NCBI GenBank assembly: GCA_038231135.1
Contig: JBBRLX010000001.1
Coordinates: forward strand, 64,001 to 128,000
Length of the DNA: 64,000 bases
DNA from: Candidatus Eiseniibacteriota bacterium
Lineage (GTDB): Bacteria > Eisenbacteria > RBG-16-71-46
Reading direction: 5' to 3'
The translations under genes and the position numbers were made by a program. The notes under the pieces are model-generated. The model made no database searches. It saw only the letters and a program-made list of their open reading frames with translations, and had not been told where the DNA came from. Positions 39,467 to 61,515 of the stretch are shown one piece after another. Position 1 is the stretch's first letter. Each line of letters begins with the position of its first letter.

Positions 39467-40245
39467 GATTGGCGGATCGCGTTTCGACGCTGGAACACTG
39501 GGAATCCTACTGGCGCGGCCATGCGAACCTCGAGGAGACCTACTCCACGGGCGGTCGGCTGGTGCGCGAGGTGCTCGCGGACGGCGACGTCCGCGGCCGC
39601 GTGGTGATGGAGGTCGGCGCCGGTTCGGGCCGCGACATCCTCGAGCTGGCGCGCCACGGCGCGACCGGCATCGTGCTCGACTATTCGCCGGCGTCGCTCG
39701 AGCTGGTGCAGCGGCAGTCGCGGGCGTCGGGCGTGCCGGTGCACCTGATCCGCGCCGACGCGCTGGCGCTGCCGTTCAAGGATGGCGCGATCGACGTGGT
39801 GTTCCACCAGGGCCTGCTCGAGCACTTCCGCGACCCGATGCCGCTGCTGCGCGAGAACGCGCGCGTCACGAGGACCGGCGGACGGGTGATCGTCGACGTG
39901 CCGCAGACCTGGCACCTGTACACCGCGATGAAGCAGTCGCTGATTGCCCTGAACCGCTGGTTCGCGGGCTGGGAGACCCAGTTCACGCCGGCCGAGCTCG
40001 AGCGCTGCGTGCGGGCCGCGGGGCTCGAGGTGAAGCGCACGTACGGCGAGTGGCTGGTGCCGGGCCTCGCCTATCGCGTGACGCGCGAGGTGCTGAAGCG
40101 CGGCGCGGCCGTCACGCTGCCGCTCGAGCCGCGCGGGCCGGTCTGGTGGCAGCGCATGTGGACGGGCGCGCGGGCGCGATTCGGCCACACCCGCGCGGCA
40201 CTCTATACCTGCCACGTGATCGGCACCGTGGGGATCAAGCGTTGA
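39463..40245 (+). CDS. Class I SAM-dependent methyltransferase
   Basis: EVGAGSG, ADALALPF, GLLEHF. Confidence 0.88.
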   Translation: MRLADRVSTLEHWESYWRGHANLEETYSTGGRLVREVLADGDVRGRVVMEVGAGSGRDILELARHGATGIVLDYSPASLELVQRQSRASGVPVHLIRADALALPFKDGAIDVVFHQGLLEHFRDPMPLLRENARVTRTGGRVIVDVPQTWHLYTAMKQSLIALNRWFAGWETQFTPAELERCVRAAGLEVKRTYGEWLVPGLAYRVTREVLKRGAAVTLPLEPRGPVWWQRMWTGARARFGHTRAALYTCHVIGTVGIKR

Positions 40246-41390
40246 GCGCGGCGCCCGATCGCCCGCTGCGAATCGTGGCCGTGAACTTCCGCGATCCCGG
40301 TAATCCCGAGGCCGGCGGGGCCGAGTTGCACCTGGAGGAGATCCTGCTCGAAGCCGTGCGCCGTGGTCACGACGTGACGTGGCTCGCCGCGGGATTCCCG
40401 GGCGGGGCGCCGGACACGGTCCATCGCGGCATCCGGGTGGTGCGCCGCGCCACGTGGTGGAACTTCAACCTGGCGGTGCGCGGCGTGCTGGCGCGCGAGT
40501 TCGCGTCGCCGCCGCCCGATCTCGTGATCGAGGACATCAACAAGGCGCCGTGCTTCACGCCGGGCGCGGTGGCGGCGCCGGTGGCGGTGATCGTGCCCCA
40601 CCTGTTCGGCACCACCGCGTACCAGGAGGCGCCGTGGCCGGTCGCGACCTACGTGCTCGCGCTCGAGTCGCGGATCCCGGCGGCCTACCGGGCATGCGAC
40701 TTCCTCGCGATCTCGGAGAGCACGCGCGACGACCTGATCGCGCGCGGCGTGCCGCCCGCGCGCATCGCGGTGGTCCACTGCGGCCTCGATCACGACACCT
40801 ATCGCGTGAATGGCACGCCCAAGAGCGCCGGCCCCACGATCCTGTACGTGGGACGGCTGCGCCGCTACAAGGGCGTCGACTGGACGATCCGTGTGATGCC
40901 GCGCGTGCTGGCCCGGGTGCCCGGCGCCCGGCTGGTGGTGATCGGCGACGGACCCGACCGGCCGCGGCTCGAGGCGATGCTGGGCCGCAGCGGCGCCGGG
41001 CACGCAGTCGAATTCCTCGGGTTCATCCCCCGCGCCGACAAGGCGCGGTGGATGCGCGCGGCATGGGCGGTGGTGCAGCCGTCGCCCAAGGAGGGCTGGG
41101 GGCTCACGGTCGTCGAGGCGGCCGCCTCGGGCACCGCCGTGATCGCCGCCGACAGTCCGGGCCTGCGCGATTCCGTGCGCCGCGACGAAACCGGACTGCT
41201 GGTGCCGTATGGTGACGACGCGGCGCTCGAGCAGGCGCTGGTGACGGTGCTGACCGACACGCCGCTGCGGGACCGACTGGCCCGTGCCGGCGTCGCGTGG
41301 TCCAGGAACTTCACGTGGCCCGATTGCGCGGCGCGTTCGCTCGACGCGCTGCTCGCGCCGGTCACGGCGCGGCGGGCGGAGGCGGGATGA
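40242..41390 (+). CDS. Glycosyltransferase family 4
   Basis: AGGAE, YVGRLRRYKG, EGWGLTVVEA. Confidence 0.92.
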   Translation: MSAAPDRPLRIVAVNFRDPGNPEAGGAELHLEEILLEAVRRGHDVTWLAAGFPGGAPDTVHRGIRVVRRATWWNFNLAVRGVLAREFASPPPDLVIEDINKAPCFTPGAVAAPVAVIVPHLFGTTAYQEAPWPVATYVLALESRIPAAYRACDFLAISESTRDDLIARGVPPARIAVVHCGLDHDTYRVNGTPKSAGPTILYVGRLRRYKGVDWTIRVMPRVLARVPGARLVVIGDGPDRPRLEAMLGRSGAGHAVEFLGFIPRADKARWMRAAWAVVQPSPKEGWGLTVVEAAASGTAVIAADSPGLRDSVRRDETGLLVPYGDDAALEQALVTVLTDTPLRDRLARAGVAWSRNFTWPDCAARSLDALLAPVTARRAEAG

Positions 41391-42394
41391 ATCTCGAGGA
41401 CGGCCACGCGTATTCGGGCAAGGGCGTATGGGCGCTGATCGCCAAGATCGGGCTCAGCCTCGCGTTGATGGTGTTCCTGTTCCGGCGCATCCCGCTGCAC
41501 GAGGTGCTCGAATCCATTCGCACCGCGGATCGCTCGTGGCTGCTCGCGGCGGTCCTGCTGCTGGTGGCGAGCAACGTGCTGGGCGCCTATCAATGGGAGC
41601 GGCTGCTGCGCGCCGTCGACATCCGCATCCCGTTCTGGAAGGTGTGCGCCTATTACCACGTCGGGCTGTTCTTCAACAATTTCCTGCCCGCAAACATCGG
41701 CGGCGACATCGCGCGGGTGCTCGACGCGTCGCGTCACGGGCCCAACCGCGGGACGGTCGTGTCCACGGTGATCATGGACCGGCTGCTGGGGACGGTGGCG
41801 CTCGCCGGCATGGCGCTGATCATGACGCTGCCCGCGATCAACCGGTTCCACCTCGCGTTCGTGTACCTGGCGCTCGTGGGATTCTTCGCGTTCAGCGTGA
41901 TGCTGGTGTGGGCGATCTTCCATCCCGGGCTGCTGCCCCAGGTGGAGCGGGTGCTCGCCCGGGTCGGATTCCGCTCGCTGGGCCCGCACCTGGACGACCT
42001 GGCGGAGCGGATTCGACATTTCCGTGACCGTCGCGGATTGTTTGCCGGACTGCTCGCCATGGCGATGGTGGTGCAATTGTCGAGGATTTTCGTGCACGTC
42101 CTGGTGGCGCGCGCGCTCGGGCTGGCGATCCCGCTCACCTACTTCCTGCTTTTCGTTCCGCTGCTGGGGGTGATAGTCTCGCTGCCCATCTCGTTGAACG
42201 GCATCGGGGTGCGCGAGGGGGCGGGGGTCGTGCTGTTCGGACTCGTCGGCGTCGGACGCGCACAGGCGTTCTCACTTCAATTCACTACTTATCTGGTGGC
42301 GGTGGCCGTGAGTCTGTTGGGCGGGATGATTTTCCTGGCACGCATTCCCCGCCGTCGCAGAGCCGAACGGCTGGCCGCACGGAGGTCTTCCTGA
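41387..42394 (+). CDS. LPG_synthase_TM (UPF0104) flippase-like membrane protein
   Basis: FFNNFLPANIGGD, MDRLLG, LPISLNGIGVREG. Confidence 0.88.
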   Translation: MNLEDGHAYSGKGVWALIAKIGLSLALMVFLFRRIPLHEVLESIRTADRSWLLAAVLLLVASNVLGAYQWERLLRAVDIRIPFWKVCAYYHVGLFFNNFLPANIGGDIARVLDASRHGPNRGTVVSTVIMDRLLGTVALAGMALIMTLPAINRFHLAFVYLALVGFFAFSVMLVWAIFHPGLLPQVERVLARVGFRSLGPHLDDLAERIRHFRDRRGLFAGLLAMAMVVQLSRIFVHVLVARALGLAIPLTYFLLFVPLLGVIVSLPISLNGIGVREGAGVVLFGLVGVGRAQAFSLQFTTYLVAVAVSLLGGMIFLARIPRRRRAERLAARRSS

Positions 42395-45078
42395 TGGATG
42401 CGGCGCGTCGCGCCACGTATGGCATCGCCCTCCTCGTCTTCCTCATCGCCGCCACCGTCTACCTGATCACGCTCACGCCTACCGTGCCATTCTGGGACGC
42501 CGGCGAATTCATCGCGGTGTCCAAGATCCTCGGCATCCCGCATCCCCCCGGCACGCCGCTGTACGTGATGCTGGGGCGCATCGCCACGCTGATCCCGTGG
42601 GGCACCGGCGTCAGCGCCTTCGCCCGGCGCGTGAACGCGATGTCGGCGCTGCCGTCGGCGCTCGCCGTGATGTTTACGTATCTGTGCACGCTCAAGTTCG
42701 TGCGTCTCGCGCTGCGCGGTCCGGTGACCGAGCCCGCGCCGCGCGCGGGCCGCCCGTCCGACGCCCCGGTCGCAGACCTCGCGCCGCCGGCGGGCCTGCC
42801 GTGGACCGAGATCATCGCGCAGGTCGGCGGCATCGTCGGCGCCCTGATGCTCGCGTTCTCCGACTCGTTCTGGGAGAACTCGATCGAGGCCGAGGTCTAC
42901 CAGATGATGAGCCTCGGCTCGATCCTGGTGTTCTGGCTCGGCCTGCGCTGGTGGGAGGAGCATGACCGCAAGCCCAACGTGAAATACCTGCTGATCGCCA
43001 CCTACGTGCTGTGGCTGAGCATCGGGTTGCACCTCGGCGTCGGCGTGATGGGCCTGCCGCTGGTGGTGCTGATCGCGCTCGTCGACTGGCGCGTGGCGGT
43101 GCTGTTTGCGATGCCGTTCCTGTCGATCCTGCGCGTGGTCGCCGGCCTCGAGCGCATGGCGGGAGCGGTGCTGATCCTGTCGCTCGGCACGTTCGTGGTG
43201 TGGTACTTCCAGCGCAAGATGCCCGGGCCGCTCGTGCTGCTGAGCGCCGTGGGCACCGCGATCGGCTCCTACTACGCATTCACGGACGCCACGTTCACCC
43301 CGACGGCGGCGGTGCTGTCGGCGCTCGGCGTCATCGGACCGCTGGCGTGGCTCGCGCGCACCCGCAGCGAGGGCCGCATCCTGCTGCTCGCCCTGTTCCT
43401 GATGATCGCGGGCTACTCGACGCATCTCTACCTGCCGATCCGCGCCGCGCAGCACCCCGGCGTGAACGAAGGCGCGCCCGACAACTGGGACAAGCTGCGC
43501 GATCTGCTCGAGCGCAAGCAGTACGGCGAGATGAACATGTTCGTGCGCCGGGCGCCGCTGTCGGTCCAGCTCGACAAGGAATTCTGGCGGTACTTCAGCC
43601 GCCAGTGGCCGCTGTTTCCGACCGGCCGGCTGTGGGGTGTGCTGCTGCCGCTCGCGCTCGGCCTCGCGGGGGCGTGGTGGCTCGGGCGCCGGAATCGAAC
43701 ATCGTTCCTCTACACGTTCGTATTCTTCGGGCTCAATACCGCAGGACTCATCCTGTTCCTCAACTTCAGCGATCACGAGGTGCGGGACCGCGACTACTTC
43801 TACCAGAGCGGCTACCACGCGTACGCGATCTTCATCGGCGTGGGCGCGGCGTGGCTGATCCACTGGGTGCGGGACTCGTTCGACGAGGGATCGGCGCGCC
43901 GCTACCTGACCGCGTTCACCGCGCTGCTGATGCTCGCGATGCCGTTCCTGATGATGAAGACGCTGTGGTTCACGCACGACCGCCGCGGCAACTACGTGGC
44001 CCACGACTACGCCTACAACATGCTGGCGCCGCTGGCGCCGAATTCGTTCGTGTTCACGAACGGCGACAACGACACGTTCCCGCTGTGGTACATGCAGCAG
44101 GTCGAGGACTTCCGCCGTGACGTGCGGGTGGTGAACCTGAGCCTGCTGAACACCGACTGGTACATCCGGCAGCTGCGGGACGAGGAGCCGAAGGTGCCGA
44201 TCCAGCTCGACGACCGCACGGTCGACATGCTCGGGGTCGGCGCGATCCGTGACAGCACCGGCAACATCGTCTACACCAGCCGGTTCATGGTGGATCACAT
44301 CATCCGCCAGGACCGCAAGCCCGACGGCACGTGGAAGAAGCAACCGTACTTCGCCGTCACCGTGCCGGAGCACATGGGGCTCGACAAGAACTTCACGCTC
44401 GAGGGCCTGGTCTACCGCGTGAACCCCGAGTCGACCACCGTCCAGATCGACGAGGCGGTGACCCGCCATTCGCTGTACGACGTGTTCATGTACCGCGGGC
44501 TGTTCAAGCCCGACGGCTCATGGGATCCCGGCGTGTTCAAGGACGAGAACGCCGCGACGCTGTCGCGCAACTACGCAGCGGCGCACCTGCAGCTCGCGTT
44601 CCTGTACCGCAAGCGCGGCCAGCTCGATCGCGGGATCGCCGAGATGGAGCGCGTGGCGCGCATGTTCCCGGACTACACCGACGTGATGGTGCCGCTCGGC
44701 AGCTTCTACATGGACAAGGGCGACACCGCGCGCGCGCTGGCGCTGTTCAAAAAGATCTCGGAACGCAATCCGCAGGACGTCGAGGCGCGCTACTACTACG
44801 GCGTGATCCTGGCGTATCGCGGCAACGTGCCCGAGGCGCTGGCGCAGCTCGACCAGGTGATCCGCACCGATCCCACGTACACGATGGCCTACTACGCGGC
44901 CTACTTCACGCTGTCGGAGCGCGGCGACAAGCAGCGCGCCATGGGATACCTCGAGCGGTGGGTCGAGGCGAACCCCAACGACGCGCAGGCGCAACAGTTG
45001 CTCGAGCAGCAGCGCCGCGCCATGGGGCTGGCGCAGCCGCCGGCCGCGATCCGTCCGCCGGTGCCGAACCTGCCCTAG
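42394..45078 (+). CDS. DUF2723/TMEM260-like GT-C glycosyltransferase with C-terminal TPRs
   Basis: FWDAGEFIA..ILGIPHPPGTPLY, EAEVY, RDRDYFY, FTNGDNDTFPLWY; many TM helices; TPR tail. Confidence 0.9.
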   Translation: MDAARRATYGIALLVFLIAATVYLITLTPTVPFWDAGEFIAVSKILGIPHPPGTPLYVMLGRIATLIPWGTGVSAFARRVNAMSALPSALAVMFTYLCTLKFVRLALRGPVTEPAPRAGRPSDAPVADLAPPAGLPWTEIIAQVGGIVGALMLAFSDSFWENSIEAEVYQMMSLGSILVFWLGLRWWEEHDRKPNVKYLLIATYVLWLSIGLHLGVGVMGLPLVVLIALVDWRVAVLFAMPFLSILRVVAGLERMAGAVLILSLGTFVVWYFQRKMPGPLVLLSAVGTAIGSYYAFTDATFTPTAAVLSALGVIGPLAWLARTRSEGRILLLALFLMIAGYSTHLYLPIRAAQHPGVNEGAPDNWDKLRDLLERKQYGEMNMFVRRAPLSVQLDKEFWRYFSRQWPLFPTGRLWGVLLPLALGLAGAWWLGRRNRTSFLYTFVFFGLNTAGLILFLNFSDHEVRDRDYFYQSGYHAYAIFIGVGAAWLIHWVRDSFDEGSARRYLTAFTALLMLAMPFLMMKTLWFTHDRRGNYVAHDYAYNMLAPLAPNSFVFTNGDNDTFPLWYMQQVEDFRRDVRVVNLSLLNTDWYIRQLRDEEPKVPIQLDDRTVDMLGVGAIRDSTGNIVYTSRFMVDHIIRQDRKPDGTWKKQPYFAVTVPEHMGLDKNFTLEGLVYRVNPESTTVQIDEAVTRHSLYDVFMYRGLFKPDGSWDPGVFKDENAATLSRNYAAAHLQLAFLYRKRGQLDRGIAEMERVARMFPDYTDVMVPLGSFYMDKGDTARALALFKKISERNPQDVEARYYYGVILAYRGNVPEALAQLDQVIRTDPTYTMAYYAAYFTLSERGDKQRAMGYLERWVEANPNDAQAQQLLEQQRRAMGLAQPPAAIRPPVPNLP

Positions 45079-45153: not shown

Positions 45154-46110
45154 ATGGCGCAACGGCACGCTCTGGTGACGGGGGCGGCGGGGTTCATCGG
45201 CTCGACGCTCACGGAACGCCTGCTCGCGATGGACGTGCGGGTGACGGGCGTCGACCTGTTCACCGACTACTACGATCCGGCGTTCAAGCGCCGCAACGTG
45301 GCGGCGGCCGTGGCGCACCCGAACTTCCGGCTGCTCGAGCTGGACCTGGGTGAAGCCGACCTCGCCGCGCTGCCGGATGCCGACGTGGTGTACCATCAGG
45401 CCGCGCAGCCCGGCGTGCGCGCGTCGTGGGGCGCCGAGTTCGCGGTCTACACGCATCACAACGTGCTCGCGACGCAGCGCCTGCTCGAGCGCTATCGCGG
45501 CACCGCGCTCGAGCGCTTCGTCTACGCGTCGTCGTCGTCGGTGTACGGCGACGCCGAGCAGTACCCCACGTCCGAGACGCTGCTGCCGCGGCCGTTCTCG
45601 CCCTACGGCGTCACCAAGCTCGCGGCCGAGCACCTGGTGCTGCTCTACGGCCGCAACTTCGGCCTGCCGGTGGCGGCGCTGCGCTACTTCACGGTCTACG
45701 GGCCGCGCCAGCGCCCCGACATGGCGTTCCACCGGTTCGCACGCGCGATGCTCAAGGGCGAGCCGATCGTGGTCTACGGCGACGGCACCCAGTCGCGCGA
45801 CTTCACGTTCATCGCCGACGCGGTCGAGGCGAACGTGCGCGCCTGGCAGCGCAGCGCGCCGCAGGGCGTCTACAACGTGGGCGGCGGTTCGCAGGTCGAC
45901 GTGCTGCAGGCGATCGCGATCCTCGAATCCGCGCTGGGCGTGAAGGCCCAGATCGAGTTCCAGCCGCGGCCCCCGGGCGACCCGATGCGCACCCGCGCCG
46001 ACGCCACGCGCATCCGCGCCGATTTCGATTTCGTTCCGGCCACCCCCATCGAACAGGGCCTCGCGGCCGAGGCCGACTGGGCCCGCGAGGTGTACGCGGC
46101 GCGCGTATGA
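45154..46110 (+). CDS. NAD-dependent nucleotide-sugar epimerase/dehydratase (UDP-glucuronate 4-epimerase-like)
   Basis: TGAAGFIGS, AAQPGVR, ASSSSVYG, YGVTK, YGPRQRPDMA. Confidence 0.92.
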   Translation: MAQRHALVTGAAGFIGSTLTERLLAMDVRVTGVDLFTDYYDPAFKRRNVAAAVAHPNFRLLELDLGEADLAALPDADVVYHQAAQPGVRASWGAEFAVYTHHNVLATQRLLERYRGTALERFVYASSSSVYGDAEQYPTSETLLPRPFSPYGVTKLAAEHLVLLYGRNFGLPVAALRYFTVYGPRQRPDMAFHRFARAMLKGEPIVVYGDGTQSRDFTFIADAVEANVRAWQRSAPQGVYNVGGGSQVDVLQAIAILESALGVKAQIEFQPRPPGDPMRTRADATRIRADFDFVPATPIEQGLAAEADWAREVYAARV

Positions 46111-47048
46111 CCGCGTCCTCGATCACTGCTGTCATCCCCGCGTACAACGAGAGCGAGAGCCTCACCGAGCTCCACCGCGAACTGGTGCTGGCGCTCGACG
46201 CGCTCGGCTGCCCGTGGGACGTGGTGTACGTCGACGACGGGTCCCGCGACGGCACCGAAGGGGTGATCGAGGCGCTGTCGGCGAACGACCCGCGGGTCGC
46301 GGGCATCGTGCTGCGGCGGAACTTCGGCAAGTCGGCCGCGCTCGCGACCGGGTTCCGACACGCGCGCGGCGAGTGGATCCTGACGCTCGATGCCGACCTG
46401 CAGGACGACCCCGCCGAGCTGCCGAAGCTCGTCGCCGCGCTCGAGGGCGGGTTCGACCTGGTGTCGGGCTGGAAGGTGAACCGCCAGGATCCGATCACGA
46501 AGACGCTGCCGTCCAAGCTGTTCAACGCCGTCACGTCGGCGGTCGCGGGCATCCGGCTGCACGACTTCAACTGCGGATTCAAGCTGTACCGCCGCGAGGT
46601 GGTCGAGTCGATCGAGGTCTACGGCGAGCTCCACCGGTTCATGCCGGCGCTCGCGCACTGGCGCGGATTCCGCGTGGGCGAGGTCGGCGTGCGCCATCGC
46701 GCCCGGCGGTTCGGCAAGAGCAAGTTCGGGCCGGCGCGGTTCATCAACGGCTTCCTCGACCTCATGGGCGCCGCGTTCATCTCGACGTCGGCGCTCAAGC
46801 CGCTGCACGTGTTCGGCCGCATCGGCATCGCGTTCCTGGTGCTCGGCTGCCTGCCCGGAGTGTTCTTCGTGAGCCAGTGGATCCACCACGAGCCGCTGCG
46901 CGTGCGGCCGCTCATGCTGCTCGGCGTGGGGATGGTGCTCGTCGGCATCCAGTTCGTGCTGATGGGCCTGCTGGGCGAGATGATCGCCCACATGGGCTCG
47001 CGGGTGGACTACCCGATCCGCCGCTACCTGCGCTGCGGGAAGCTGTGA
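46107..47048 (+). CDS. GT2 polyprenol-phosphate glycosyltransferase (ArnC/GtrB-like, two C-terminal TMs)
   Basis: IPAYNE, VDDGSRD, RNFGKSAA, DADLQDDP, HDFNCGFK. Confidence 0.9.
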   Translation: MTASSITAVIPAYNESESLTELHRELVLALDALGCPWDVVYVDDGSRDGTEGVIEALSANDPRVAGIVLRRNFGKSAALATGFRHARGEWILTLDADLQDDPAELPKLVAALEGGFDLVSGWKVNRQDPITKTLPSKLFNAVTSAVAGIRLHDFNCGFKLYRREVVESIEVYGELHRFMPALAHWRGFRVGEVGVRHRARRFGKSKFGPARFINGFLDLMGAAFISTSALKPLHVFGRIGIAFLVLGCLPGVFFVSQWIHHEPLRVRPLMLLGVGMVLVGIQFVLMGLLGEMIAHMGSRVDYPIRRYLRCGKL

Positions 47049-47740
47049 TGCGCGCGTTCATCCTCGCGGGCGGGCAGGGCACGCGGCTCAAGGCGCGGTT
47101 CGGCGACCTGCCGAAGCCGCTGGCGCCGATCGGCGGCGTGCCGTTCCTCGCGCGCCAGCTCGACTGGCTCGCCGGCTACGGTGTGCGCGACGCGGTGCTG
47201 TGCGTCGGCTACGGCGCGGACCAGGTCGAGGCGACGCTCGGCGACGGCCTCGCCCACGGCGTGACGCTGCGCTATTCGGTCGAGGACGAGCCGCTCGGCA
47301 CCGGCGGCGCGCTGGCGCGGGCGCACGGCCTGGTGCTGGGTCCCACGCTGGTCGTGAACGGCGACACGCTGCCGGAGTGCGACCCGTGGGCGATCGAGCG
47401 CGACCGCTGGGAGCGCGGTGCGATCGGTGCGGTCGGGCTGTTCCACGTCGACGACGCGCGGTCGCGCGGCCGCGTCGAGCTCGACGACCGGGGCGCGATC
47501 GCCGCGTTTCGCGAGAAGGACGCGGACGACTCCGGCGGGGCCTGGGTGAACGGCGGCGTATACGCGTTCGACGCCGCGCTGTGGCGCCTGCTGCCCGCGG
47601 GCCCGTCGTCGCTCGAGCGCGACGTGCTGCCGCGGCTCGCGGCGGCCGGCCGGCTGATCGGCCACCGCTCGCCGGGACGGTTCTTCGACATCGGCACGCC
47701 CGAGGACTGGGAGCGCGCGGACCGGGAGCTGACGCGATGA
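47048..47740 (+). CDS. hddC: Sugar-1-phosphate nucleotidyltransferase, HddC-like
   Basis: LAGGQGTRL, PKPLAP, EPLGTGG, NGDT, FFDIGTPED; adjacent to HddA-like kinase. Confidence 0.7.
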   Translation: MRAFILAGGQGTRLKARFGDLPKPLAPIGGVPFLARQLDWLAGYGVRDAVLCVGYGADQVEATLGDGLAHGVTLRYSVEDEPLGTGGALARAHGLVLGPTLVVNGDTLPECDPWAIERDRWERGAIGAVGLFHVDDARSRGRVELDDRGAIAAFREKDADDSGGAWVNGGVYAFDAALWRLLPAGPSSLERDVLPRLAAAGRLIGHRSPGRFFDIGTPEDWERADRELTR

Positions 47741-48765
47741 AGACGCCGCACTACCTGCGCGCGCGTGCGCCGCTGCGGCTGTCGTTCTGCGGCGGCGGCA
47801 CCGACGTGTCGCCGTATCCCGAGGAGCACGGTGGCATGGTGCTGTCGGCGACCATCAACCAGTACGCCTACGCGTCGCTGCGGCCGCGGCGCGATTCGAA
47901 GCTCACGCTCGCGAGCCTCGACTACGACATGCTGGTGAAGTATGCCCACCCGCGGCGCATGCGGCTCGACGGCAACCTCGACCTGATCAAGACGGCGGTG
48001 CGCGCGCTCAAGGTGAAACGCGGCGCCGACCTGTGGTTCCACTCCGACGCCCCGCCCGGCTCCGGGCTCGGTTCGTCGTCGACGCTGTGCGTGGCGCTGA
48101 TCGGCGTGCTCGGCGAGTGGCTGAACAAGTCGTTCACCAGCTACGACGCGGCCGAGCTGGCGTACCGCGTCGAGCGCATCGACCTGGGGCTCGCCGGCGG
48201 CAGGCAGGATCAGTACGCCGCGGCGTTCGGCGGCTTCAACTTCATCGAGTTCAACCCCGACTCGACGGTCGTGAACCCGCTGCGCATCCGGCCGGAGGTC
48301 GTGCTCGAGCTCGAGGCCCGCATGCTGCTGTGCTACATGGGCCAGACCCGGCAGTCGGCGAACATCATCGAGAAGCAGGTGGCGAACTATCGCCGCGGCC
48401 GCGAGGAGACGGTGCGGGCGCTGCACGACCTCAAGCTCCAGACGATCGAGATGAAGAAGGCGCTGCTGCTCGGCGACATGGACGGGTTCGGCGAGCTGCT
48501 GCACGAGGCGTGGGAGCACAAGAAGCAGCTCGAACCCGGCATCTCGACCGGCCACATCGACAAGCTGTACCAGCTCGCCCGCAAGGAGGGCGCGATCGGC
48601 GGCAAGATGCCGGGTGCCGGCGGCGGCGGCTACTTCCTGTTCCTCACGCGCTACGACCGCCAGCACCGCGTCGCCGCCGCGCTCACGAAGCTGGGCGGGC
48701 AGGTGGTCCCGTTCCAATTCGAGCCGCGCGGGCTCCTCAGCTGGTCCGCTCCGCGCTCGCGGTGA
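47737..48765 (+). CDS. hddA: GHMP sugar kinase, D-glycero-D-manno-heptose-7-phosphate kinase-like
   Basis: APLRLSFCGGGTDV, PPGSGLGSSS, GGRQDQYAAAFGGFN, GAGGGG. Confidence 0.8.
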   Translation: MKTPHYLRARAPLRLSFCGGGTDVSPYPEEHGGMVLSATINQYAYASLRPRRDSKLTLASLDYDMLVKYAHPRRMRLDGNLDLIKTAVRALKVKRGADLWFHSDAPPGSGLGSSSTLCVALIGVLGEWLNKSFTSYDAAELAYRVERIDLGLAGGRQDQYAAAFGGFNFIEFNPDSTVVNPLRIRPEVVLELEARMLLCYMGQTRQSANIIEKQVANYRRGREETVRALHDLKLQTIEMKKALLLGDMDGFGELLHEAWEHKKQLEPGISTGHIDKLYQLARKEGAIGGKMPGAGGGGYFLFLTRYDRQHRVAAALTKLGGQVVPFQFEPRGLLSWSAPRSR

Positions 48766-48775: not shown

Positions 48776-49951
48776 ATGACGCCGCGCCGGCGGATCGCGC
48801 TCGTGGGTCCGCTCGCGCCGTGGCGCGGCGGACTCGCGCAGTACCTGGCGCAGCTCGGCGAGGCGCTGGTCCCGTATGCCGACGTCCAGGGCGTCACGTT
48901 CACGCGCCAGTACCCGGGGCTGCTGTTTCCGGGCGCGAGCCAGCTCGACCCGGCGGCCACGCGGCCGTCGTTCCCGGTGGCGGCGCTGCTCGACACCATC
49001 GATCCCCTGAGCTGGCGCCGCGCCGCCGCGCACCTCGTGCGGCTGGCGCCCGAGGCGATCATCCTCAAGTGGTGGATGCCGTTCTTCGGTCCCGCGTTCG
49101 CGGGCGCCGTGGGCCGGGCCCGCCGCCACGGCTCGCGCGTGGTGCTGGTGTGCGACAACCTGGTGCCGCACGAGCGCCGCCCGCTCGACACGACGTTCAC
49201 GCGCTGGATGCTGCGCCAGTCCGACGGGTTCCTCGTGATGTCGGACGCGGTCGAGCGCGACCTCGACCGGCTGGTGCCGGGCGCCGTGCGCCGCCGCGTC
49301 GCGCACCCGCTCTACGCGCAGTTCGACCAGGGCCGCTGGGAGCGCGCCAGCGCGCGTGCGCGGCTGGGGCTCGCGCCCGACGACGAGGTGGTGCTGTTCT
49401 TCGGCTACGTGCGGCGCTACAAGGGGCTCGATACGCTGCTCGAAGCGTGGCCGCGGGTGCGCGCCCGGCGGCCGCGCGCCGTGCTGGTGGTGGCGGGCGA
49501 GTTCTACGAAGATGCGGGTCCGTACCGGTTGCTGGCGGAGCGCGCGGGGGGCGAGCCCGCGGTGCGGCTGCTCGAGCGCTATCTGCCGGACGAGGAGGTC
49601 GAGGCCGTGTTCAAGGCGGCGGACGTCGTGGTGCTGCCGTACCGCTCGGCCACCCAGAGCGGCGTCACCCACGTCGCCTACGCGCTCGGAGTGCCCGTGA
49701 TCACCACCGACGTCGGAGGACTGGCCGAGACCGTGACGCCCGCGACCGGGCTCGTGGTGCCGCCCGACAACCCCGAGGCGCTCGCCGCCGCGATCGTCCG
49801 CTACTTCGCCGACGGCCTGGGCCCGGCACTGCGCCTGGGCGTGGAACGCGTGCGGTGGCAGCAGTCGTGGGACGTGCTCGCGCGCGAGACGCTGGAGCTG
49901 ATCGACGCGCTCACCCCCGGCCGCGCGCCGGCGGCCGGCGGGGCGCGATGA
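48776..49951 (+). CDS. Glycosyltransferase family 4
   Basis: PWRGG, FFGYVRRYKG, LPYRSATQSG. Confidence 0.9.
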   Translation: MTPRRRIALVGPLAPWRGGLAQYLAQLGEALVPYADVQGVTFTRQYPGLLFPGASQLDPAATRPSFPVAALLDTIDPLSWRRAAAHLVRLAPEAIILKWWMPFFGPAFAGAVGRARRHGSRVVLVCDNLVPHERRPLDTTFTRWMLRQSDGFLVMSDAVERDLDRLVPGAVRRRVAHPLYAQFDQGRWERASARARLGLAPDDEVVLFFGYVRRYKGLDTLLEAWPRVRARRPRAVLVVAGEFYEDAGPYRLLAERAGGEPAVRLLERYLPDEEVEAVFKAADVVVLPYRSATQSGVTHVAYALGVPVITTDVGGLAETVTPATGLVVPPDNPEALAAAIVRYFADGLGPALRLGVERVRWQQSWDVLARETLELIDALTPGRAPAAGGAR

Positions 49952-51639
49952 CGATCGTCGCGTTCCAACCCCTGGACGAGGCGCCGCGCACCGCGCGCTG
50001 GATCGCGGTCGCCGCCCTGCTGCTCTACGTGGTGTCGGGCGGCGGGAGGATCGTGGGCAGCGACGAGGTCACGATGCTCGAGTTGTCGCGCGCGCTGCTG
50101 CACGGCGGGGTCGCGGTGCCGGCGGGCGCGACACTCGACGGCGCGGACGGACGGCACTACACGAAGAACGCCGCGGCGCAGGCGGTGCTGGCGCTGCCGC
50201 TCACGGCGGTCGCCGAGGGCGCGGCCGGCGCCGCCGGGCTCGCGCCCGCGCGCCGGCTGCTGGCCGTGCGGTTCGTCGTGTCGTTCTTCAACGCGCTGGT
50301 GACCGCGCTGCTGCTGGCCGCGTTCTACGTGGCGGCGCGCCGGCTGCGCGTGCGGCCCGGCATCGCGCTCGGGGCCACGGCGCTGCTCGGATTCGCGACC
50401 CCGCTGTGGGTCTACTCCAAGAGCTTCATGGCCGAGCCGCTGCAGGGGCTCGGCTTGCTGCTGGCGCTCGCCGGCTGCGCGGGGGTGGGCGACGACGAGT
50501 CCGCCGGCGCCACGGCGCGCCGGTTTCCCGACCGCTCCGCGCGCGCGGCCGGCATCGGCATGTTCCTGGCCGTGTCGGCCAAGCTCAGCATGCTGCCGCT
50601 CGCGCTCGCGATCGGCGCCGTGCTGCCCGGCCGCCGGCCGGCGGCGTGGCGCGCACCGGTCGTGGGCGTGCTGCTGGCGCTCGCGGGCCACGGGCTCTAC
50701 GACTTCGTCCGGTTCGGCACGCCGTTCGAGACCGGCTACGGCGCCCAGGCCACCACCGCCGCGTACACCACGCCGCTGTGGGTCGGCCTCTATGGGCTGT
50801 TGCTGTCGTCGGGCAAGGGTGTGCTGTGGTTCGCGCCCGCGCTGTGGCTCGCGCTGCCGGTGTGGCTCACCCATGCCGGCGCCTCGGAGCTGCTGCCGCC
50901 GTCGCGCGACGCCGAGGTCCGCGTGCGGCGCGGGCTCGCGAGCCGGCTCTCGCGGCTCGACGCCGAGGCGCGCGTGCGCTGGGGGGCGGCGCTCGCGTGG
51001 CTGGCGGCGCTGTGGCTCTACGGGCGGTTCCAGCACTGGGCGGGTGACGGCTCGTTCGGGCCGCGCTACCTGGTGCCGGTGCTGCCGCTCGCGTTCCTGG
51101 TGGTGGCGCTGGTGCTCGAGCGCGGCTCGCGCGGCGCGCGGCGCTGGGCCATCGTGCTCGGCGTCCTGGGGCTGCTCGTGAACCTCGGCGGCGTCGCGAT
51201 CTATTTCGGCGCCCAGATGCGCGAGGCCGGGGATTATCCGTACCAGCTGCCGCTCGAACACCCGCGCTCGCTGAGCGACAGTCACTTCAATCCGCGCTAC
51301 ACACCGATCGTGGGCCACTGGTCGATGCTGGTGCGCAACCTGGGCGAGCACCTGCACGGCCGCGAACCGCGGCTCGGCGTCGGCGTCGCCGCGTCCGCAC
51401 CGGAATCCACCGCCGCGTCCGCGCCGGAATCCAGCGCCGCCACGACCGCCGCCCGGCTCGGCATCGCCGCGGACGATCAGTCGAAATTGCTGCATGCGCT
51501 GGATTTCTGGTGGCTCTACCTGGGCTACGCGGGATTCCCGCGGCTCCCGGTGTGGGCGCTCGCGGGGGTGCTGAAGCTCGCGGGGCTCGTGGCCGCGTGG
51601 CGGGCATGGCGTTCGGCGCGCGCCGAGGCGCCGGCGTGA
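49948..51639 (+). CDS. Multi-pass membrane protein, probable GT-C (PMT/ArnT-like) transferase
   Basis: N-terminal TM then SDE acidic motif; YSKSFMAEP; RFGTPFETGY; FGPRYLVP. Confidence 0.7.
   Translation: MTIVAFQPLDEAPRTARWIAVAALLLYVVSGGGRIVGSDEVTMLELSRALLHGGVAVPAGATLDGADGRHYTKNAAAQAVLALPLTAVAEGAAGAAGLAPARRLLAVRFVVSFFNALVTALLLAAFYVAARRLRVRPGIALGATALLGFATPLWVYSKSFMAEPLQGLGLLLALAGCAGVGDDESAGATARRFPDRSARAAGIGMFLAVSAKLSMLPLALAIGAVLPGRRPAAWRAPVVGVLLALAGHGLYDFVRFGTPFETGYGAQATTAAYTTPLWVGLYGLLLSSGKGVLWFAPALWLALPVWLTHAGASELLPPSRDAEVRVRRGLASRLSRLDAEARVRWGAALAWLAALWLYGRFQHWAGDGSFGPRYLVPVLPLAFLVVALVLERGSRGARRWAIVLGVLGLLVNLGGVAIYFGAQMREAGDYPYQLPLEHPRSLSDSHFNPRYTPIVGHWSMLVRNLGEHLHGREPRLGVGVAASAPESTAASAPESSAATTAARLGIAADDQSKLLHALDFWWLYLGYAGFPRLPVWALAGVLKLAGLVAAWRAWRSARAEAPA
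51388..51435 (+). repeat. Near-exact 24-nt coding duplication (AASAPEST/AASAPESS)
   Basis: GCCGCGTCCGCACCGGAATCCACC / GCCGCGTCCGCGCCGGAATCCAGC. Confidence 0.85.
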
Positions 51640-52598
51640 GCGGCTCCGGCGTGTCGCCCGGTGCGGACCCCGGCGCCGGTGGCCCGGGGGTGCGGACGCT
51701 CACCGTGATCGTGCTCAACTGGAACGGGCTCGCCGATACGCGGGTACTGCTGCCCACGCTCGCGCGCTCGCGCATGCCGCCGGCATGGCGGCTGCGGGTG
51801 ATGGTGGTGGACAACGGCTCCACCGACGGATCGCAGGCGGCGCTCGCGCGCGAGTTCCCGGATGTCGAGCTGGTCGAGAACGGCAGCAACCTGCGGTTCG
51901 CGGGCGGCAACAACGCCGGGTTGCGCCGCGCGCTCGGGCGCGGCGACGATGCGATCATGCTGCTCAACAACGACACCGCGGCCGATCCCGCGATGCTCGA
52001 GCACCTGATCCTCGCGCTGGAGCAGGACCCGGCGGCGGGCGCCGCTGCGCCGCTCACGTATTTCGCGGCGCCGTCGCAGCGGATCTGGTACGGCGGCGGC
52101 CGCTGCATCCCCTGGCTGGGCCACGCATCGCATCGCGGGGTGCGGGCACTCGACCACGGGCAGTACCGGGCGGTCGAGCCGACCGGCTACCTGTCGGGCT
52201 GCGCGCTGCTCGCGCCGCGCGCGGTGTGGGAGCGGGTCGGCCTGCTCGACGAGCGCTACTACATCTACGCCGAGGACTGCGACTGGTGTCTGCGGGCGCG
52301 GGCGGCCGGGTACCTGCTGCTGTTCGTGCCCACGGCGCGGCTGTGGCACAAGGTGTCGGCGGCGTCGGGCGCCGCGAGCCCGTGGAAGATCTACCAGCGC
52401 CTGCGAGCGAACCTCACGATGTTCGCTCGCCATGCGCGCGGCATCGGGCGCGTGACCTGGCTGCCGGCCTTCGTGGTGCAGCAACTGGTGCTCGCGGCGT
52501 GGCTGCTCGCGCGCGGCCGGGCCGCCGCGGCGGCCGCGGTGCCGCGCGCGTTCGCCGACGCGGCGCGCGGCGTCGATCCCGGCCGGGTGCGGCTGTGA
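51636..52598 (+). CDS. Glycosyltransferase family 2 (WbbL/rhamnosyltransferase-like)
   Basis: VLNWNG, VDNGSTDGS, LLNNDT, YAEDCDW. Confidence 0.9.
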   Translation: MSGSGVSPGADPGAGGPGVRTLTVIVLNWNGLADTRVLLPTLARSRMPPAWRLRVMVVDNGSTDGSQAALAREFPDVELVENGSNLRFAGGNNAGLRRALGRGDDAIMLLNNDTAADPAMLEHLILALEQDPAAGAAAPLTYFAAPSQRIWYGGGRCIPWLGHASHRGVRALDHGQYRAVEPTGYLSGCALLAPRAVWERVGLLDERYYIYAEDCDWCLRARAAGYLLLFVPTARLWHKVSAASGAASPWKIYQRLRANLTMFARHARGIGRVTWLPAFVVQQLVLAAWLLARGRAAAAAAVPRAFADAARGVDPGRVRL

Positions 52599-53446
52599 CC
52601 GCGCTCACGATCCGCGCAGTCAAACCGGTGCGCGCCCCCGGCGAGCCGCCGCTGTTCCTCTACGAGCTGATCGACGCCATGCCCGCCGGCGCGCGCGTGC
52701 TCGACGCGGGCTGTGGCCCGGGATCATGGGACTACGCGCGGCGCCCCGACCTCGACATCTCGGGCTTCGACATCAAGTTCCCGCCGGGGCCGCCGGCGCG
52801 ACGCCCCCACGTGCAGGTGTTCCGCGGCGACATGGCGCGGCTGGCGGTGCGCAGCGGCAGCTACGATCTCACCGTGTGCCACTACGTGCTCGAACACGTC
52901 ACCGAGCTCGTGGCGTGCTGCGACGAGCTCGCGCGCGTGACGCGGCCGGGCGGCACGCTGTACCTGTCGGTCCCGCGGGCGGCGGCGTTCGACGACCGGC
53001 TCTACCGGTTCGCCGGCTATTTCGCGAAGTACGCGCTCGGCAAGTTCCAGAAGCGCATCGAGCATCAGCAGCGATTCGACTTCCTTGAGCTCGCGGAGCT
53101 GTTCTACGCCCGCGGCTTCGAGCTCGCGGCCATGGCGGTCGTGCCGGCGGGGTTCTCGTGGATGAACGACGCCCGCACCAAGCCGCTGCAGCGCCCGTTC
53201 ACGGAGTTCGTCGCGTGGCTGCACCGCACGCTCGGCGTGGACCTGGGTGCCGGCGCGAATTACGTGCTGAGCCTGAGGAAGACCGGCGCCACCGGGCTCA
53301 GGCGCGTGACGCACGTGTGCCGCGAGTGCGGCGAGCATGCGGTGATCGACCCGGTCCTGCCGTGGCCGGAACGCTGGGTGTGCCCGTGGTGCGGCCGCGA
53401 GAACCCGCTGGGCGCGCCGCGCGGACCGGCGGTCCCCGATGCGTGA
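52595..53446 (+). CDS. Class I SAM methyltransferase with C-terminal Zn-ribbon
   Basis: VLDAGCGPG, YVLEHV; CRECG...CPWCG. Confidence 0.85.
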   Translation: MTALTIRAVKPVRAPGEPPLFLYELIDAMPAGARVLDAGCGPGSWDYARRPDLDISGFDIKFPPGPPARRPHVQVFRGDMARLAVRSGSYDLTVCHYVLEHVTELVACCDELARVTRPGGTLYLSVPRAAAFDDRLYRFAGYFAKYALGKFQKRIEHQQRFDFLELAELFYARGFELAAMAVVPAGFSWMNDARTKPLQRPFTEFVAWLHRTLGVDLGAGANYVLSLRKTGATGLRRVTHVCRECGEHAVIDPVLPWPERWVCPWCGRENPLGAPRGPAVPDA

Positions 53447-54896: not shown

Positions 54897-54941
54897 GCGC
54901 GTCCGGCCGCTGAAGCAGGGAATCTTCGGGAGGCGTCGCCG

Positions 54942-57128: not shown

Positions 57129-57140
57129 GGCACGGCACTC

Positions 57141-60798: not shown

Positions 60799-61515
60799 GT
60801 GGAAAAACTCGTCATCGTACCGACCTACAACGAGCGCGACAACATCGAGCCGTTGCTGCGGCGCATCCTGGCGCAGCCGCTCGACCTGCACGTGCTGGTC
60901 GTCGACGACGGTTCGCCGGACGGCACGGCGGCGGTGGTGCGCGAATGGATGACCACGGAGGCGCGCCTCCACCTGATCGAGCGGGCCGGCAAGATGGGAC
61001 TCGGCTCCGCCTACCGCGAGGGCTTCCGTTACGCGCTCGACCACGGCGCCCAGTACATCTTCGAGATGGACGCCGACTTCTCGCACGACCCCGACAGCCT
61101 GGGCGCGTTCCTCGAGCACATCGAGCACGCCGACGTGGTGCTCGGCTCGCGCTACCTGAACGGCGTCACGGTCGTGAACTGGCCGATCCAGCGGCTGATC
61201 CTGTCGTACCTCGCGAACCGCTACACGCGGCTCATCACCGGTCTGCCGGTGAACGACGCCACCGGAGGCTTCAAGTGTTTCCGCCGGCGGGCGCTCGAGG
61301 CGGTGCGGCTCGACAAGGTGAAGTCCGACGGCTACTCGTTCCAGATCGAGATGACGTTCAAGATCTGGCGCAAGGGGTTCCGGATCGTCGAGATCCCGAT
61401 CCTGTTCGTGGATCGCCGGGCCGGGGTGTCCAAGATGAACCGCAAGATCGTGTGGGAGGCGGCCTGGATGGTGTGGCGGCTGCGGTTCAACGACTGGTTC
61501 GGCCAGCTCGAATGA
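60799..61515 (+). CDS. Polyprenol monophosphomannose synthase (DPM1/Ppm1-like GT2)
   Basis: IVPTYNERDN, VDDGSPDGT, GLGSAY, EMDADFSHDP, DATGGF, GYSFQIEM. Confidence 0.92.
   Translation: MEKLVIVPTYNERDNIEPLLRRILAQPLDLHVLVVDDGSPDGTAAVVREWMTTEARLHLIERAGKMGLGSAYREGFRYALDHGAQYIFEMDADFSHDPDSLGAFLEHIEHADVVLGSRYLNGVTVVNWPIQRLILSYLANRYTRLITGLPVNDATGGFKCFRRRALEAVRLDKVKSDGYSFQIEMTFKIWRKGFRIVEIPILFVDRRAGVSKMNRKIVWEAAWMVWRLRFNDWFGQLE

Follow-up and report, generated by a model that had tools for sequence, protein, structure and literature searches.

A TMEM260-family glycosyltransferase in an Eisenbacteria operon as a candidate initiator of Asp-Ser/Thr protein O-glycosylation

A TMEM260-family protein in a sugar-transfer operon

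In a 64,000-nucleotide stretch of Candidatus Eiseniibacteriota DNA (the window), the open reading frame at 42394..45078 encodes an 894-aa protein which, judged by its sequence, is a TMEM260-family (PF11028) GT-C glycosyltransferase with Rossmann-like and TPR domains. On balance, we favor the view that this protein initiates a general O-glycosylation system of the Bacteroidota type, with YfhO as the main rival for this role. In Bacteroidota, the first sugar of the O-glycan is mannose, attached to D-S/T-X, and the transferase is still undiscovered (PMC12871550). According to this work and a preprint, the attaching enzyme has escaped identification for more than 15 years, including in dominant gut and oral species (PMC12871550; bioRxiv 10.64898/2026.07.27.740950). 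More tentatively, and with slightly less than even confidence, we propose that the TMEM260/DUF2723 clade found across the FCB group is this long-sought initiator, that Eisenbacteria and FCB phyla other than Bacteroidota share the system, that the operon represents its complete parts list, and that human TMEM260 descends from, or is sister to, a bacterial housekeeping enzyme of glycosylation and has been retargeted. The parts would be a lipid-P-Man synthase, a flippase, a core methyltransferase and GT4, the initiator, and ArnC-like, Wzx and YfhO proteins for an outer glycan.

The operon lies between ribH/nusB and the dcw cluster; across 44100-64000, promoter and terminator signals did not exceed chance. 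It comprises:

39469..40245, + strand: SAM methyltransferase, predicted sugar O-methylation
40275..41390, + strand: GT4 glycosyltransferase (39/40 phylum loci)
41387..42394, + strand: LPG_synthase_TM / flippase-like membrane protein, candidate lipid-linked-donor flippase (24/40 loci)
42394..45078, + strand: TMEM260/DUF2723-family GT-C glycosyltransferase, Rossmann-like and TPR domains, 894 aa
45154..46110, + strand: NAD-dependent nucleotide-sugar epimerase/dehydratase
46107..47048, + strand: ArnC/PgfS/GtrB-type GT2, second predicted polyprenyl-phosphate-sugar synthase and rival donor source
47048-47740, + strand: sugar-1-phosphate nucleotidyltransferase (below family cut-off)
47737-48765, + strand: HddA-like GHMP kinase (below family cut-off)
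48776..58265, + strand: variable middle block (GT4, GT-C-like, GT2, methyltransferase, Wzx-type flippase, AsnB-like amidotransferase, GT4)
49948-51639, + strand: second unclassified GT-C-like membrane protein, in the middle block
53439-54896, + strand: Wzx-type flippase flanked by glycosyltransferases, in the middle block
58302..60773, + strand: YfhO-like GT-C, rival initiating-transferase candidate or outer-glycan ligase
60799..61515, + strand: DPM1/Ppm1-like GT2, predicted polyprenyl-phosphate-mannose synthase
61550..63841, + strand: PorZ-like beta-propeller protein with C-terminal sorting domain, possible substrate

The nucleotidyltransferase and kinase at 47048..48765 are predicted to form a nucleotide-sugar supply pair. 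The variable middle block resembles an outer-glycan locus, and some relatives have compact operons lacking Wzx and the variable glycosyltransferases.

Sequence and fold of the 894-aa protein

The reading frame starts with an ATG overlapping the stop codon of the gene upstream. PF11028 matches residues 35-230 with 141 bits against a curated cut-off of 24.2 (E 3.9e-41), and in a family profile search TPR families span about residues 725-865. Family membership as such is ordinary, and databases already use the labels DUF2723 or TMEM260-like. Residues 34-57 form the motif WDAGEFIAVSKILGIPHPPGTPLY, in which the D35 codon occupies 42496-42498. In the AlphaFold2 model (mean pLDDT 93.5), a membrane part of many helices is followed by an alpha/beta domain (~535-700), and residues 718-876 form ten helices of the TPR type. 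The first-pass annotation had described a TMEM260-like protein with a WDAGE motif, a multi-TM core and C-terminal TPRs; the PF11028 score and the profile alignment to human TMEM260 uphold the family assignment, and the motif, the model and the TPR families agree with the architecture.

Human TMEM260 (CAZy GT117; Pfam PF11028; PDB 9RQL/9RQM/9RQN) serves as the reference (PMC10214176; bioRxiv 10.64898/2026.03.17.711096). It is the sole solved-sequence match of residues 1-709 (9RQL, E 3.6e-17), and a TPR-free profile also matches it (E 5.9e-38). The full-length profile was swamped by TPR matches, a problem solved with a profile of short-form homologues, which gives a single uninterrupted alignment over human residues 28-485 (E 8.4e-48); human TMEM260 was missed by a profile limited to residues 325-500. 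Fold searches with the model returned only generic GT-C and TPR matches, with Z 23-25 to STT3, ALG12, Pmt and ArnT, and TMEM260 entries were absent from the results, the library probably lacking 9RQL/9RQM. Hence, the fold scores do not separate one type of acceptor from another.

Catalytic and contact residues

Three segments carry the residues that correspond to the human active site:

42493..42552, + strand: sugar-recognition loop W34-G53 with D35 (= human D52) and H50 (= human H67)
43513..43524, + strand: donor-loading-loop motif R374-x-x-Y377 (= human R264/Y267)
44059..44076, + strand: NGDNDT 556-561, in which D558 = human catalytic base D441

The profile alignment (E 8.4e-48) pairs D52, H67, R264, Y267 and D441 with these residues, and D35, H50, R374, Y377 and D558 each occur in 145/145 aligned homologues. 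By this comparison, the donor-binding and catalytic residues are intact. In the 2026 structures of human TMEM260, D52 contributes to donor binding and D441 is the general base (bioRxiv 10.64898/2026.03.17.711096). Thus, the Asp of WDAGE, earlier taken to be catalytic, does align to a human functional residue, but it corresponds to the donor-binding D52, and the predicted base is D558.

On the acceptor side, N556, D560 and S583 occupy the positions of the human contacts R439, P443 and E466, and these replacements are nearly invariant in the 145 homologues. R464 and R466 are each found in 144/145. The human donor-contacting R355 pairs ambiguously, with R466 in the E 5.9e-38 profile or with Y468 in the E 8.4e-48 alignment. 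The human protein targets extended peptides through a sequon rather than folded domains, and its TPR domain suffices for peptide binding (bioRxiv 10.64898/2026.03.17.711096). The human TPR part, with its asparagine ladder (N602, N638, N642, N680), did not align; in the first TPR helix of the bacterial protein, N719 (106/145) and N726 (133/145) are conserved.

Distribution, gene linkage and essentiality

The TMEM260-family gene is core: it occurs in 81/81 genomes of the phylum, in 151/151 Bacteroidota and in many FCB phyla, and the Bacteroidota loci examined carry the motifs of the 894-aa protein. The DPM1-like gene is present as one strong copy in 80/81 phylum genomes (two copies in the remaining one) and in 31/31 Bacteroidota. 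Its product here has Pyrococcus Dol-P-Man synthase (5MLZ) as best solved relative (E 1.6e-30, vs 3.7e-08 for ArnC), with the DxD motif present as DAD in the alignment to 5MLZ; for Bacteroidales genes of this type, GDP-mannose specificity is by annotation only. Wherever both genes share a contig, the DPM1-like gene follows the TMEM260-family gene at 3-30 kb on the same strand (52/52 genomes). In 11 of these 52, belonging to five families and possibly one clade, the cluster is split such that YfhO has moved elsewhere and DPM1 stays by the TMEM260-like gene. Outside the phylum lineage, a DPM1-like gene lies within 6 kb of the DUF2723 gene at 6/60 loci, and in Bacteroidota at 0/28.

The proposal that the donor synthase is co-encoded therefore stands as regards the shared operon and the 52/52 linkage, but the gene immediately follows the YfhO-like GT-C, at 15.7 kb (12 genes) downstream, and an ArnC-like GT2 is also present. 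Since the operon holds this ArnC-like synthase and two further GT-Cs (one YfhO-like), we infer rather than observe mannose as the donor. Elsewhere in the genome, 17 other PMT_2-type GT-C matches are potential users of lipid-mannose. For GDP-Man supply, a ManC-like gene lies on contig C5 (below family cut-off). No canonical rhamnose (rml) cluster was recognized in this 93%-complete genome, and the best RmlC-type match for dTDP-Rha supply sits in a CDP-sugar-like cluster. The SAM methyltransferase adjoins the TMEM260-family gene in 38/40 phylum loci and 15/75 wider loci, and the GT4 of the 40275 type occurs in 6/31 Bacteroidota genomes, in each case no more than about 5 kb from the DUF2723 gene.

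In published Bacteroidales screens, P. vulgatus CL10 shows no insertion at all in DUF2723, and the gene is listed as essential in 5/6 strains, as is the polyprenol-P-mannose synthase in Bacteroidales; the YfhO-like gene is marked essential in 4/5 strains and nearly so in a sixth, and the ArnC-like gene in 6/6 (PMC13114119 supplement file 3). The B. thetaiotaomicron DUF2723 gene, BT3247, is not marked essential (PMC13114119 supplement file 3); BT2133 (essential, 902 aa) was rejected as the DUF2723 gene because it is LptD.

An Asp-Ser sequon excess in exported proteins

Export was predicted with a rule of our own making, and the relatives contribute small samples. The 502 predicted exported proteins of this genome contain 432 DS[LVT] motifs vs 186 in shuffles (2.3-fold), and the 1343 cytoplasmic proteins 335 vs 283 (1.2-fold). 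After removal of paralogues, 243 exported proteins hold 259 DS-hydrophobic motifs vs 127 expected, with Leu, Thr and Val favored, and ES-, NS- and reversed control motifs in this set lie at 0.9-1.1. Three proteobacterial replicons without PF11028 give 24 DS[LVT] vs 31 expected (0.8). Observed and expected counts are 17 vs 9 and 7 vs 3 in Bacteroidota samples, and 36 vs 17 and 10 vs 4 at other FCB loci. Among eight relatives sampled, the excess is at least 1.5-fold in five and absent in three. Genomes without an excess despite an intact gene are G040 (28 vs 39), G050 (3 vs 9) and G011 (8 vs 8), all without YfhO in the operon. Sorting-domain cargo of this genome is depleted in the sequon (243 vs 316), and the same depletion has been reported for P. 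gingivalis surface proteins (PMC10897501). The excess indicates that a glycosylation system likely exists, and the evidence favors, as its target, a short linear Asp-Ser sequon in numerous exported proteins rather than a fold.

A possible mechanism

The TMEM260-family protein would take mannose, either by itself or within a short lipid-linked core, from a polyprenyl-phosphate carrier and attach it to Ser/Thr of Asp-Ser/Thr-hydrophobic motifs in many exported proteins. The 60799 enzyme would make lipid-P-Man from GDP-Man on the cytoplasmic side, and the 41387 protein would flip it. In the periplasm, the TPR and Rossmann-like domains may grip the newly exported, still extended chain while D558 deprotonates the Ser hydroxyl. 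More speculatively, the sequon Asp might be accommodated through loss of the acidic human E466 (here S583) together with the near-invariant R464/R466, and the ArnC-like, Wzx and YfhO genes might build an outer glycan and ligate it to the protein-bound mannose.

Rival enzymes, donors and acceptors

The sequon excess does not tell which GT-C serves the system. The YfhO-like GT-C (58302) could read D-S/T-X using lipid-mannose from its neighbor 60799, with the TMEM260-like protein extending or capping the protein-bound glycan or serving a narrower protein set. We consider this unlikely, though it is the alternative to be taken most seriously. YfhO is universal in the sample (81/81 phylum genomes), lies immediately before the DPM1-like gene in this and most other phylum genomes, and is essential in several Bacteroidales, BT3247 being a DUF2723 gene without this mark. 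Pooled relatives with YfhO in the operon show 51 DS[LVT] vs 26 expected, and compact operons 58 vs 63; two compact-operon genomes nevertheless show an excess (G071, 14 vs 6; G013, D[ST]-hydrophobic 18 vs 10). In the split clusters (11/52), DPM1 keeps with the TMEM260-like gene while YfhO departs, and in Bacteroidota YfhO pairs with ArnC-like genes (6/28). To our knowledge, the only characterized PF11028 member is a protein O-mannosyltransferase, whereas Bacillus YfhO glycosylates a polymer, with an ArnC/GtrB-type partner. A 2026 preprint proposes YfhO as the OTase for D-S/T sites (bioRxiv 10.64898/2026.07.27.740950). Separating the two enzymes through YfhO-free genomes fails: a PF09586 search left 7/151 Bacteroidota without a match, but 4/4 of those re-tested hold a YfhO-like gene, so that the absences may be a threshold effect.

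It is improbable that the TMEM260-family protein, while acting on proteins, draws its donor from the adjacent epimerase and ArnC-like pair, as a lipid-linked uronic acid or amino sugar instead of mannose. The ArnC-like gene lies 1 kb downstream in 39/40 phylum loci, so co-location does not fix the donor; it is marked essential in 6/6 Bacteroidales strains, and sequence cannot give GT-C donor specificity with certainty. Against this, the mannose- and phosphate-contacting residues of human TMEM260 are retained, the ArnC-like linkage is confined to this lineage (0/60 other loci; 0/28 Bacteroidota), and the reducing-end sugar in Bacteroidota is mannose (PMC12871550).

Still less probable is a lipid or polysaccharide acceptor (lipid A or core, or the anionic LPS anchoring sorting-domain cargo), like that of ArnT-type GT-Cs. 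The last gene of the operon is PorZ-like, the operon has the Wzx and amidotransferase typical of surface-polysaccharide loci, a heptosyltransferase-like GT directly follows the DUF2723 gene at several Ignavibacteria loci, and LPS steps would fit essentiality too. In the fold search, ArnT (Z 23.2) and ALG12 (Z 24.9) come out on a par with protein transferases, but such scores do not discriminate. Against a lipid or polysaccharide acceptor, the protein belongs by sequence to a protein-transferase family, and it retains the Rossmann-like palm with its acceptor base and the TPR domain, which is sufficient for peptide binding in TMEM260.

The first-pass annotation had named beta-sandwich products of 7758-8537 and 61550-63841 as acceptors. 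The IPT strand-B Ser/Thr sequon is missing from both. The former lacks the human IPT core motif as well as D-S/T-hydrophobic motifs; the latter is the PorZ-like beta-propeller, not a beta-sandwich, with 8 D-S/T-hydrophobic motifs vs 3.4 expected (p 0.02). IPT/TIG domains number 12 in this genome, spread over 4 ORFs; 8/12 carry a D-S/T-hydrophobic motif in a later loop, so IPT domains may be substrates via the Asp-Ser sequon. That the TMEM260-like protein, as in human, adds mannose to the IPT/Ig-like beta-sandwich domains in a handful of secreted proteins is the least probable reading: Ser/Thr occupies the human acceptor position in 5/12 domains but is missing in 7/12, the R439, P443 and E466 contacts are replaced, both named substrates fit poorly, and four accessory proteins poorly explain a universal, mostly essential gene.

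Significance and comparison with known systems

The locus supplies a candidate initiator with residue-level predictions (D558, D35, S583, R464/R466), brings together, as one operon, gene families that in Bacteroidales are dispersed and for the most part essential, and frames a clean two-way contest between the TMEM260-like protein and the recently proposed YfhO. If our preferred reading holds, O-glycosylation of this type would reach uncultured FCB phyla, and the enzyme would offer glycoengineering a three-residue sequon and the human disease gene TMEM260 a bacterial model.

The bacterial protein shares with human TMEM260 the GT-C core, Rossmann-like palm and TPR fingers in identical order, the equivalents of D52, H67, E144, R264, Y267 and D441, and a DPM1-type donor synthase. 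In contrast, its membrane region is some 85 residues longer (c. 232-325), and its TPR part is extended to ten helices vs five in human. It also differs in having acceptor contacts N556, D560 and S583 vs R439, P443 and E466, and a predicted three-residue Asp-Ser sequon on many proteins vs an IPT-strand sequon.

General O-glycosylation in Bacteroidota combines a D-S/T-X sequon, a mannose-based core and an LFG outer-glycan locus (PMC12871550). The sequon excess in exported proteins, with Ser and Leu/Val/Thr preferred, and the Wzx and variable glycosyltransferase block resemble this system, and Bacteroidales hold scattered orthologues of DUF2723, the Ppm synthase, the ArnC-like GT2, LPG_synthase_TM and YfhO. 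In contrast, the present genes lie in one operon of a different phylum (homologues are labeled Ca. Eisenbacteria), and a canonical rml cluster, relevant to the mannose-rhamnose core, was not recognized in the 93%-complete genome.

With the PMT and Pmt-Ppm1 systems (GT39) of fungi and actinobacteria, the protein shares its GT-C fold, the model scoring Z 23.3 against both Pmt2 and Pmt4 with an rmsd of 4.0-4.3 A across about 370 residues, and a predicted lipid-P-mannose donor from a DPM1/Ppm1 enzyme. PMTs modify Ser/Thr-rich regions and have no Asp sequon. Unlike them, the TMEM260-family protein is without a MIR domain, carries TPRs and places its base in the soluble domain.

Family and fold of the TMEM260-like protein

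The ORF 42394-45078 (+) encodes an 894-aa protein that belongs to the TMEM260/DUF2723 family (PF11028) by domain, fold and catalytic residues. The PF11028 match scores 141 bits, TPR matches lie at ~725-865, and the first loop singled out by the first-pass annotation comprises residues 34-57. Its nearest relatives in the database carry the label Candidatus Eisenbacteria (2285/7996 candidates at E 1e-10 or better), and residues 1-709 match 13,380 cluster representatives. An AlphaFold2 model (80 sequences; pLDDT 93.5, pTM 0.91) predicts a bundle of membrane helices together with an alpha/beta domain and ten helices of TPR type. Its top whole-core fold matches are GT-C enzymes, namely STT3 (Z 25.1, rmsd 5.0 Å, 439 aligned), ALG12 (Z 24.9), Pmt2 and Pmt4 (Z 23.3) and ArnT (Z 23.2).

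We consider it somewhat probable that this protein initiates D-S-X protein O-mannosylation with lipid-P-Man as donor. By homology, the DPM1-like 60799 product would make lipid-P-Man, which the linked GT4 and methyltransferase might conceivably extend and methylate, and the flippase-like 41387 product would flip the lipid-linked donor. As judged from human TMEM260, D35, H50, R374 and Y377 would bind the donor and D558 would transfer the sugar to the Ser of D-S-X, while the TPR and Rossmann-like domains hold the chain. More speculatively, the ArnC-like, GT, Wzx and YfhO genes might supply an outer glycan.

Genomic context

The gene is part of a series of genes on one strand that stretches from the riboflavin/nusB genes past the window end, with stops and starts overlapping or close.

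Operon genes, 5' to 3', plus strand (start positions for genes named in the text)
methyltransferase
GT4
41387, LPG_synthase_TM protein, flippase-like
42394, TMEM260-like GT-C protein
epimerase
46107, ArnC-like GT2
nucleotidyltransferase
GHMP kinase
GT4
second GT-C-like protein
GT2
methyltransferase
Wzx
amidotransferase
GT4
58302, YfhO-like GT-C
60799, DPM1-like GT2
61550, PorZ-like protein

Just beyond the window end, four further genes belong to the operon (G000:C1:127858-132783), among them, by eye, two GT4-like and another GT-C-like; mraZ and the dcw cluster come next. The second GT-C-like gene (49948-51639), conserved across several families of the phylum, encodes a membrane protein of 563 aa with many helices, whose first loop (GSDE) is GT-C-like; it has no Pfam match and a weak NCBIfam match to the LA_3751/3752 putative glycosyltransferases. 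The HddC/HddA-like nucleotidyltransferase and GHMP kinase at 47048-48765 both score under their family cut-offs, and gmhA/gmhB are absent from the operon; the pair may be a salvage route to another nucleotide sugar.

TMEM260-like, DPM1-like and YfhO-like genes occur in 81/81 genomes of the phylum (80 relatives and this one, 14 families). The TMEM260-like and DPM1-like genes share a contig in 52 of the 79 relatives with a listed best match, the contigs differing in the other 27, and in 52/52 one-contig relatives, which are related and not independent, the DPM1-like gene follows 2.7-30 kb downstream on the same strand. Forty fetched phylum loci carry ArnC-like (39/40), GT4 (39/40), methyltransferase (38/40) and flippase-like (24/40) genes. 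Several compact operons (L010, L011, L015, L016, L018, L020-L022, L032) encode a DPM1-like protein, next a GT2 of 700-735 aa that carries fused CoA-binding and bacterial sugar-transferase domains, and after it a PorZ-like protein. Duplicated TMEM260-like genes (L009, L016-L017, L037, L066, L075, L085) occur as tandem copies in several FCB genomes; in G040 the two lie 30 kb from each other. This genome also holds a stand-alone PF11028 gene of 629 aa (L002, G000:C27:4589-6478, minus strand), whose first Asp and His are kept and whose HPPG and NGDND motifs have diverged; its role may differ from that of 42394.

Sixty of the 75 loci listed in a wider survey belong to other lineages (KSB1, Calditrichota, Marinimicrobia, Ignavibacteria, Gemmatimonadota, Cloacimonadota, Zixibacteria, Bacteroidota and other records). 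Within 6 kb of the TMEM260-like gene, 6/60 of these have a DPM1-like gene and 0/60 an ArnC-like gene. Bacteroidota carry the DUF2723 family in 151/151 genomes, and DPM1-like and ArnC-like genes in 31/31 each. For the 28 of these 31 with listed positions, the ArnC-like gene lies within 12 kb of YfhO in six and of DUF2723 in none; the DPM1-like gene is near neither. These neighbourhood counts outside the phylum speak for, but do not prove, a pairing of DPM1 with the TMEM260-like gene and of the ArnC-like gene with YfhO. At the Bacteroidota loci L167 and L168, a small polysaccharide deacetylase gene directly follows the DUF2723 gene.

The YfhO-like GT-C has been proposed as the OTase in a July 2026 preprint (bioRxiv 10.64898/2026.07.27.740950). 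In 11/52 relatives YfhO lies elsewhere (other contig or megabases off) and both synthases stay by the TMEM260-like gene; we regard initiation by YfhO as unlikely. A donor other than mannose for the 42394 product is less probable again. A ManC-like gene is found elsewhere in this genome, in which a search for rhamnose genes turned up no canonical rml cluster.

Donor-side and acceptor-side residues

According to the 2026 cryo-EM preprint on human TMEM260, the general base is D441, the donor is bound by D52, H67, R264, Y267 and R355, peptides are recruited via a TPR Asn ladder, and the enzyme is active on extended peptides; bacterial sequences may be among those in the preprint's conservation figure (10.64898/2026.03.17.711096). 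A 13-homologue profile aligns continuously with human 28-485 (E 8.4e-48).

Residues of the 42394 product, human TMEM260 counterparts and occurrence in 145 aligned homologues, which are full-length sequences picked for having the first motif (first six equivalents from the 13-homologue profile alignment; last four are acceptor-side replacements)
D35, D52, 145/145
H50, H67, 145/145
E167, E144, 141/145
R374, R264, 145/145
Y377, Y267, 145/145
D558, D441, 145/145
N556, R439, 133/145
N559, L442, 145/145
D560, P443, 144/145
S583, E466, 139/145

The counterpart of human R355 is ambiguous between alignments. A catalytic Asp that fails to align, which the first-pass annotation took as refuting its reading, is not seen: the residue aligns, at D558. 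The Asp of WDAGE, which that annotation had proposed to mutate, is D35, a donor-binding position. As the donor and catalytic residues are kept and the acceptor-side residues replaced, the chemistry appears, by alignment, to be retained and the peptide-reading surface to be altered.

The acceptor

In Bacteroidota, mannose is the first sugar of the glycan, attached at D-S/T-(L,I,V,T,A,S,M) in proteins outside the cytoplasm, and this sequon is enriched in Bacteroidota proteomes (PMC12871550). P. intermedia favours DS(L/I/V), and sites in the surface cargo of P. gingivalis were judged to be selected against (PMC10897501). We counted motifs in called genes, separating exported from cytoplasmic proteins by a simple signal-peptide rule and taking within-protein shuffles as expectation. 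DS[LVT] occurs 432 times vs 186 in the 502 exported proteins of this genome and 335 times vs 283 in the 1343 cytoplasmic ones. Sorting-domain cargo (82 proteins) holds 243 D[ST]-hydrophobic motifs vs 316. The excess persists without cargo and paralogues and is confined to the Asp-Ser-Leu/Thr/Val order; in these exported proteins, Glu, Asn and reversed-order motifs show no excess and DT motifs are not enriched. Controls sampled from three replicons in which a search found no PF11028 gene (pSymB, E. coli K-12 and pNL2; for the two plasmid hosts the search covered the plasmid only) give 24 vs 31 in 102 proteins, and two Bacteroidota samples 17 vs 9 and 7 vs 3.

Among eight relatives sampled over 90-400 kb each, the sequon is at least 1.5-fold in excess in five (G044 15/9, G054 24/9, G003 12/8, G071 14/6, G013 5/3). 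The samples of G040 (28/39), G050 (3/9) and G011 (8/8, four proteins) show no excess, which counts against reading the protein as a D-S-X transferase. Their operons are compact and without YfhO; so are those of G071 and G013, yet with excess. The GT-C fold scores are nearly tied and uninformative on the acceptor; a lipid or LPS acceptor seems to us quite improbable.

IPT specificity as in human TMEM260 is the least probable reading: 5/12 TIG domains of this genome carry Ser/Thr at the human acceptor position, and human-type acceptor specificity is not borne out for the 42394 product. In 8/12 IPT/TIG domains (G000:C26, C4, C20, C14) a D-S/T-hydrophobic motif lies in the same later loop, a possible domain-level glycosite by motif position.

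The two substrates first suggested fare poorly. The 7758-8537 product contains neither a D-S/T-hydrophobic motif nor an IPT core motif, and the supposed beta-sandwich 61550 product resembles PorZ, at 101 bits and under the family cut-off, and has a sorting domain. The former, with no match in Pfam or NCBIfam, is Cys-rich and likely secreted; its start probably lies near residue 40, and its C-terminus bears a duplicated acidic motif that we take to resemble dockerin.

Essentiality and comparison with known systems

We equated the genes of PMC13114119 with window genes by family name and single strong Bacteroidota hits, not sequence to sequence, and took its 'y' columns as essential. In its supplement file 3, the DUF2723 gene of P. 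vulgatus CL10 has zero insertions. Among the reciprocal best hits of this gene, those of B. fragilis P207, B. uniformis, P. merdae and P. vulgatus ATCC 8482 are marked essential, and BT3247 of B. thetaiotaomicron is not. The mark is given to polyprenol-P-mannose synthase in 5/6 strains, ArnC-like and LPG_synthase_TM genes in 6/6, and YfhO in 4/5, with near-zero insertions in CL10 (PMC13114119). For BT0251, BT4044, BT4564 and BT2796 (yfhO), this is matched by a list for B. thetaiotaomicron (PMC8121099 supplement). Essentiality is uninformative on which GT-C acts first.

The accessible text of the founding TMEM260 paper mentions only 'distant homologs in bacteria' (PMC10214176), and we found no published test of any bacterial PF11028 member in the literature covered, most subscription papers being outside it. 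Of the Bacteroidota O-glycosylation machinery, a review describes OTase, ligase and core flippase as undiscovered (PMC12871550). This window newly contributes a single-operon parts list, the sequon signature of an Eisenbacteria genome and the substitutions at the acceptor site. The five gene families of the essentiality data (DUF2723, polyprenol-P-mannose synthase, ArnC-like, LPG_synthase_TM and YfhO), scattered and mostly essential in Bacteroidales, lie here in one operon, suggesting that they form one pathway.
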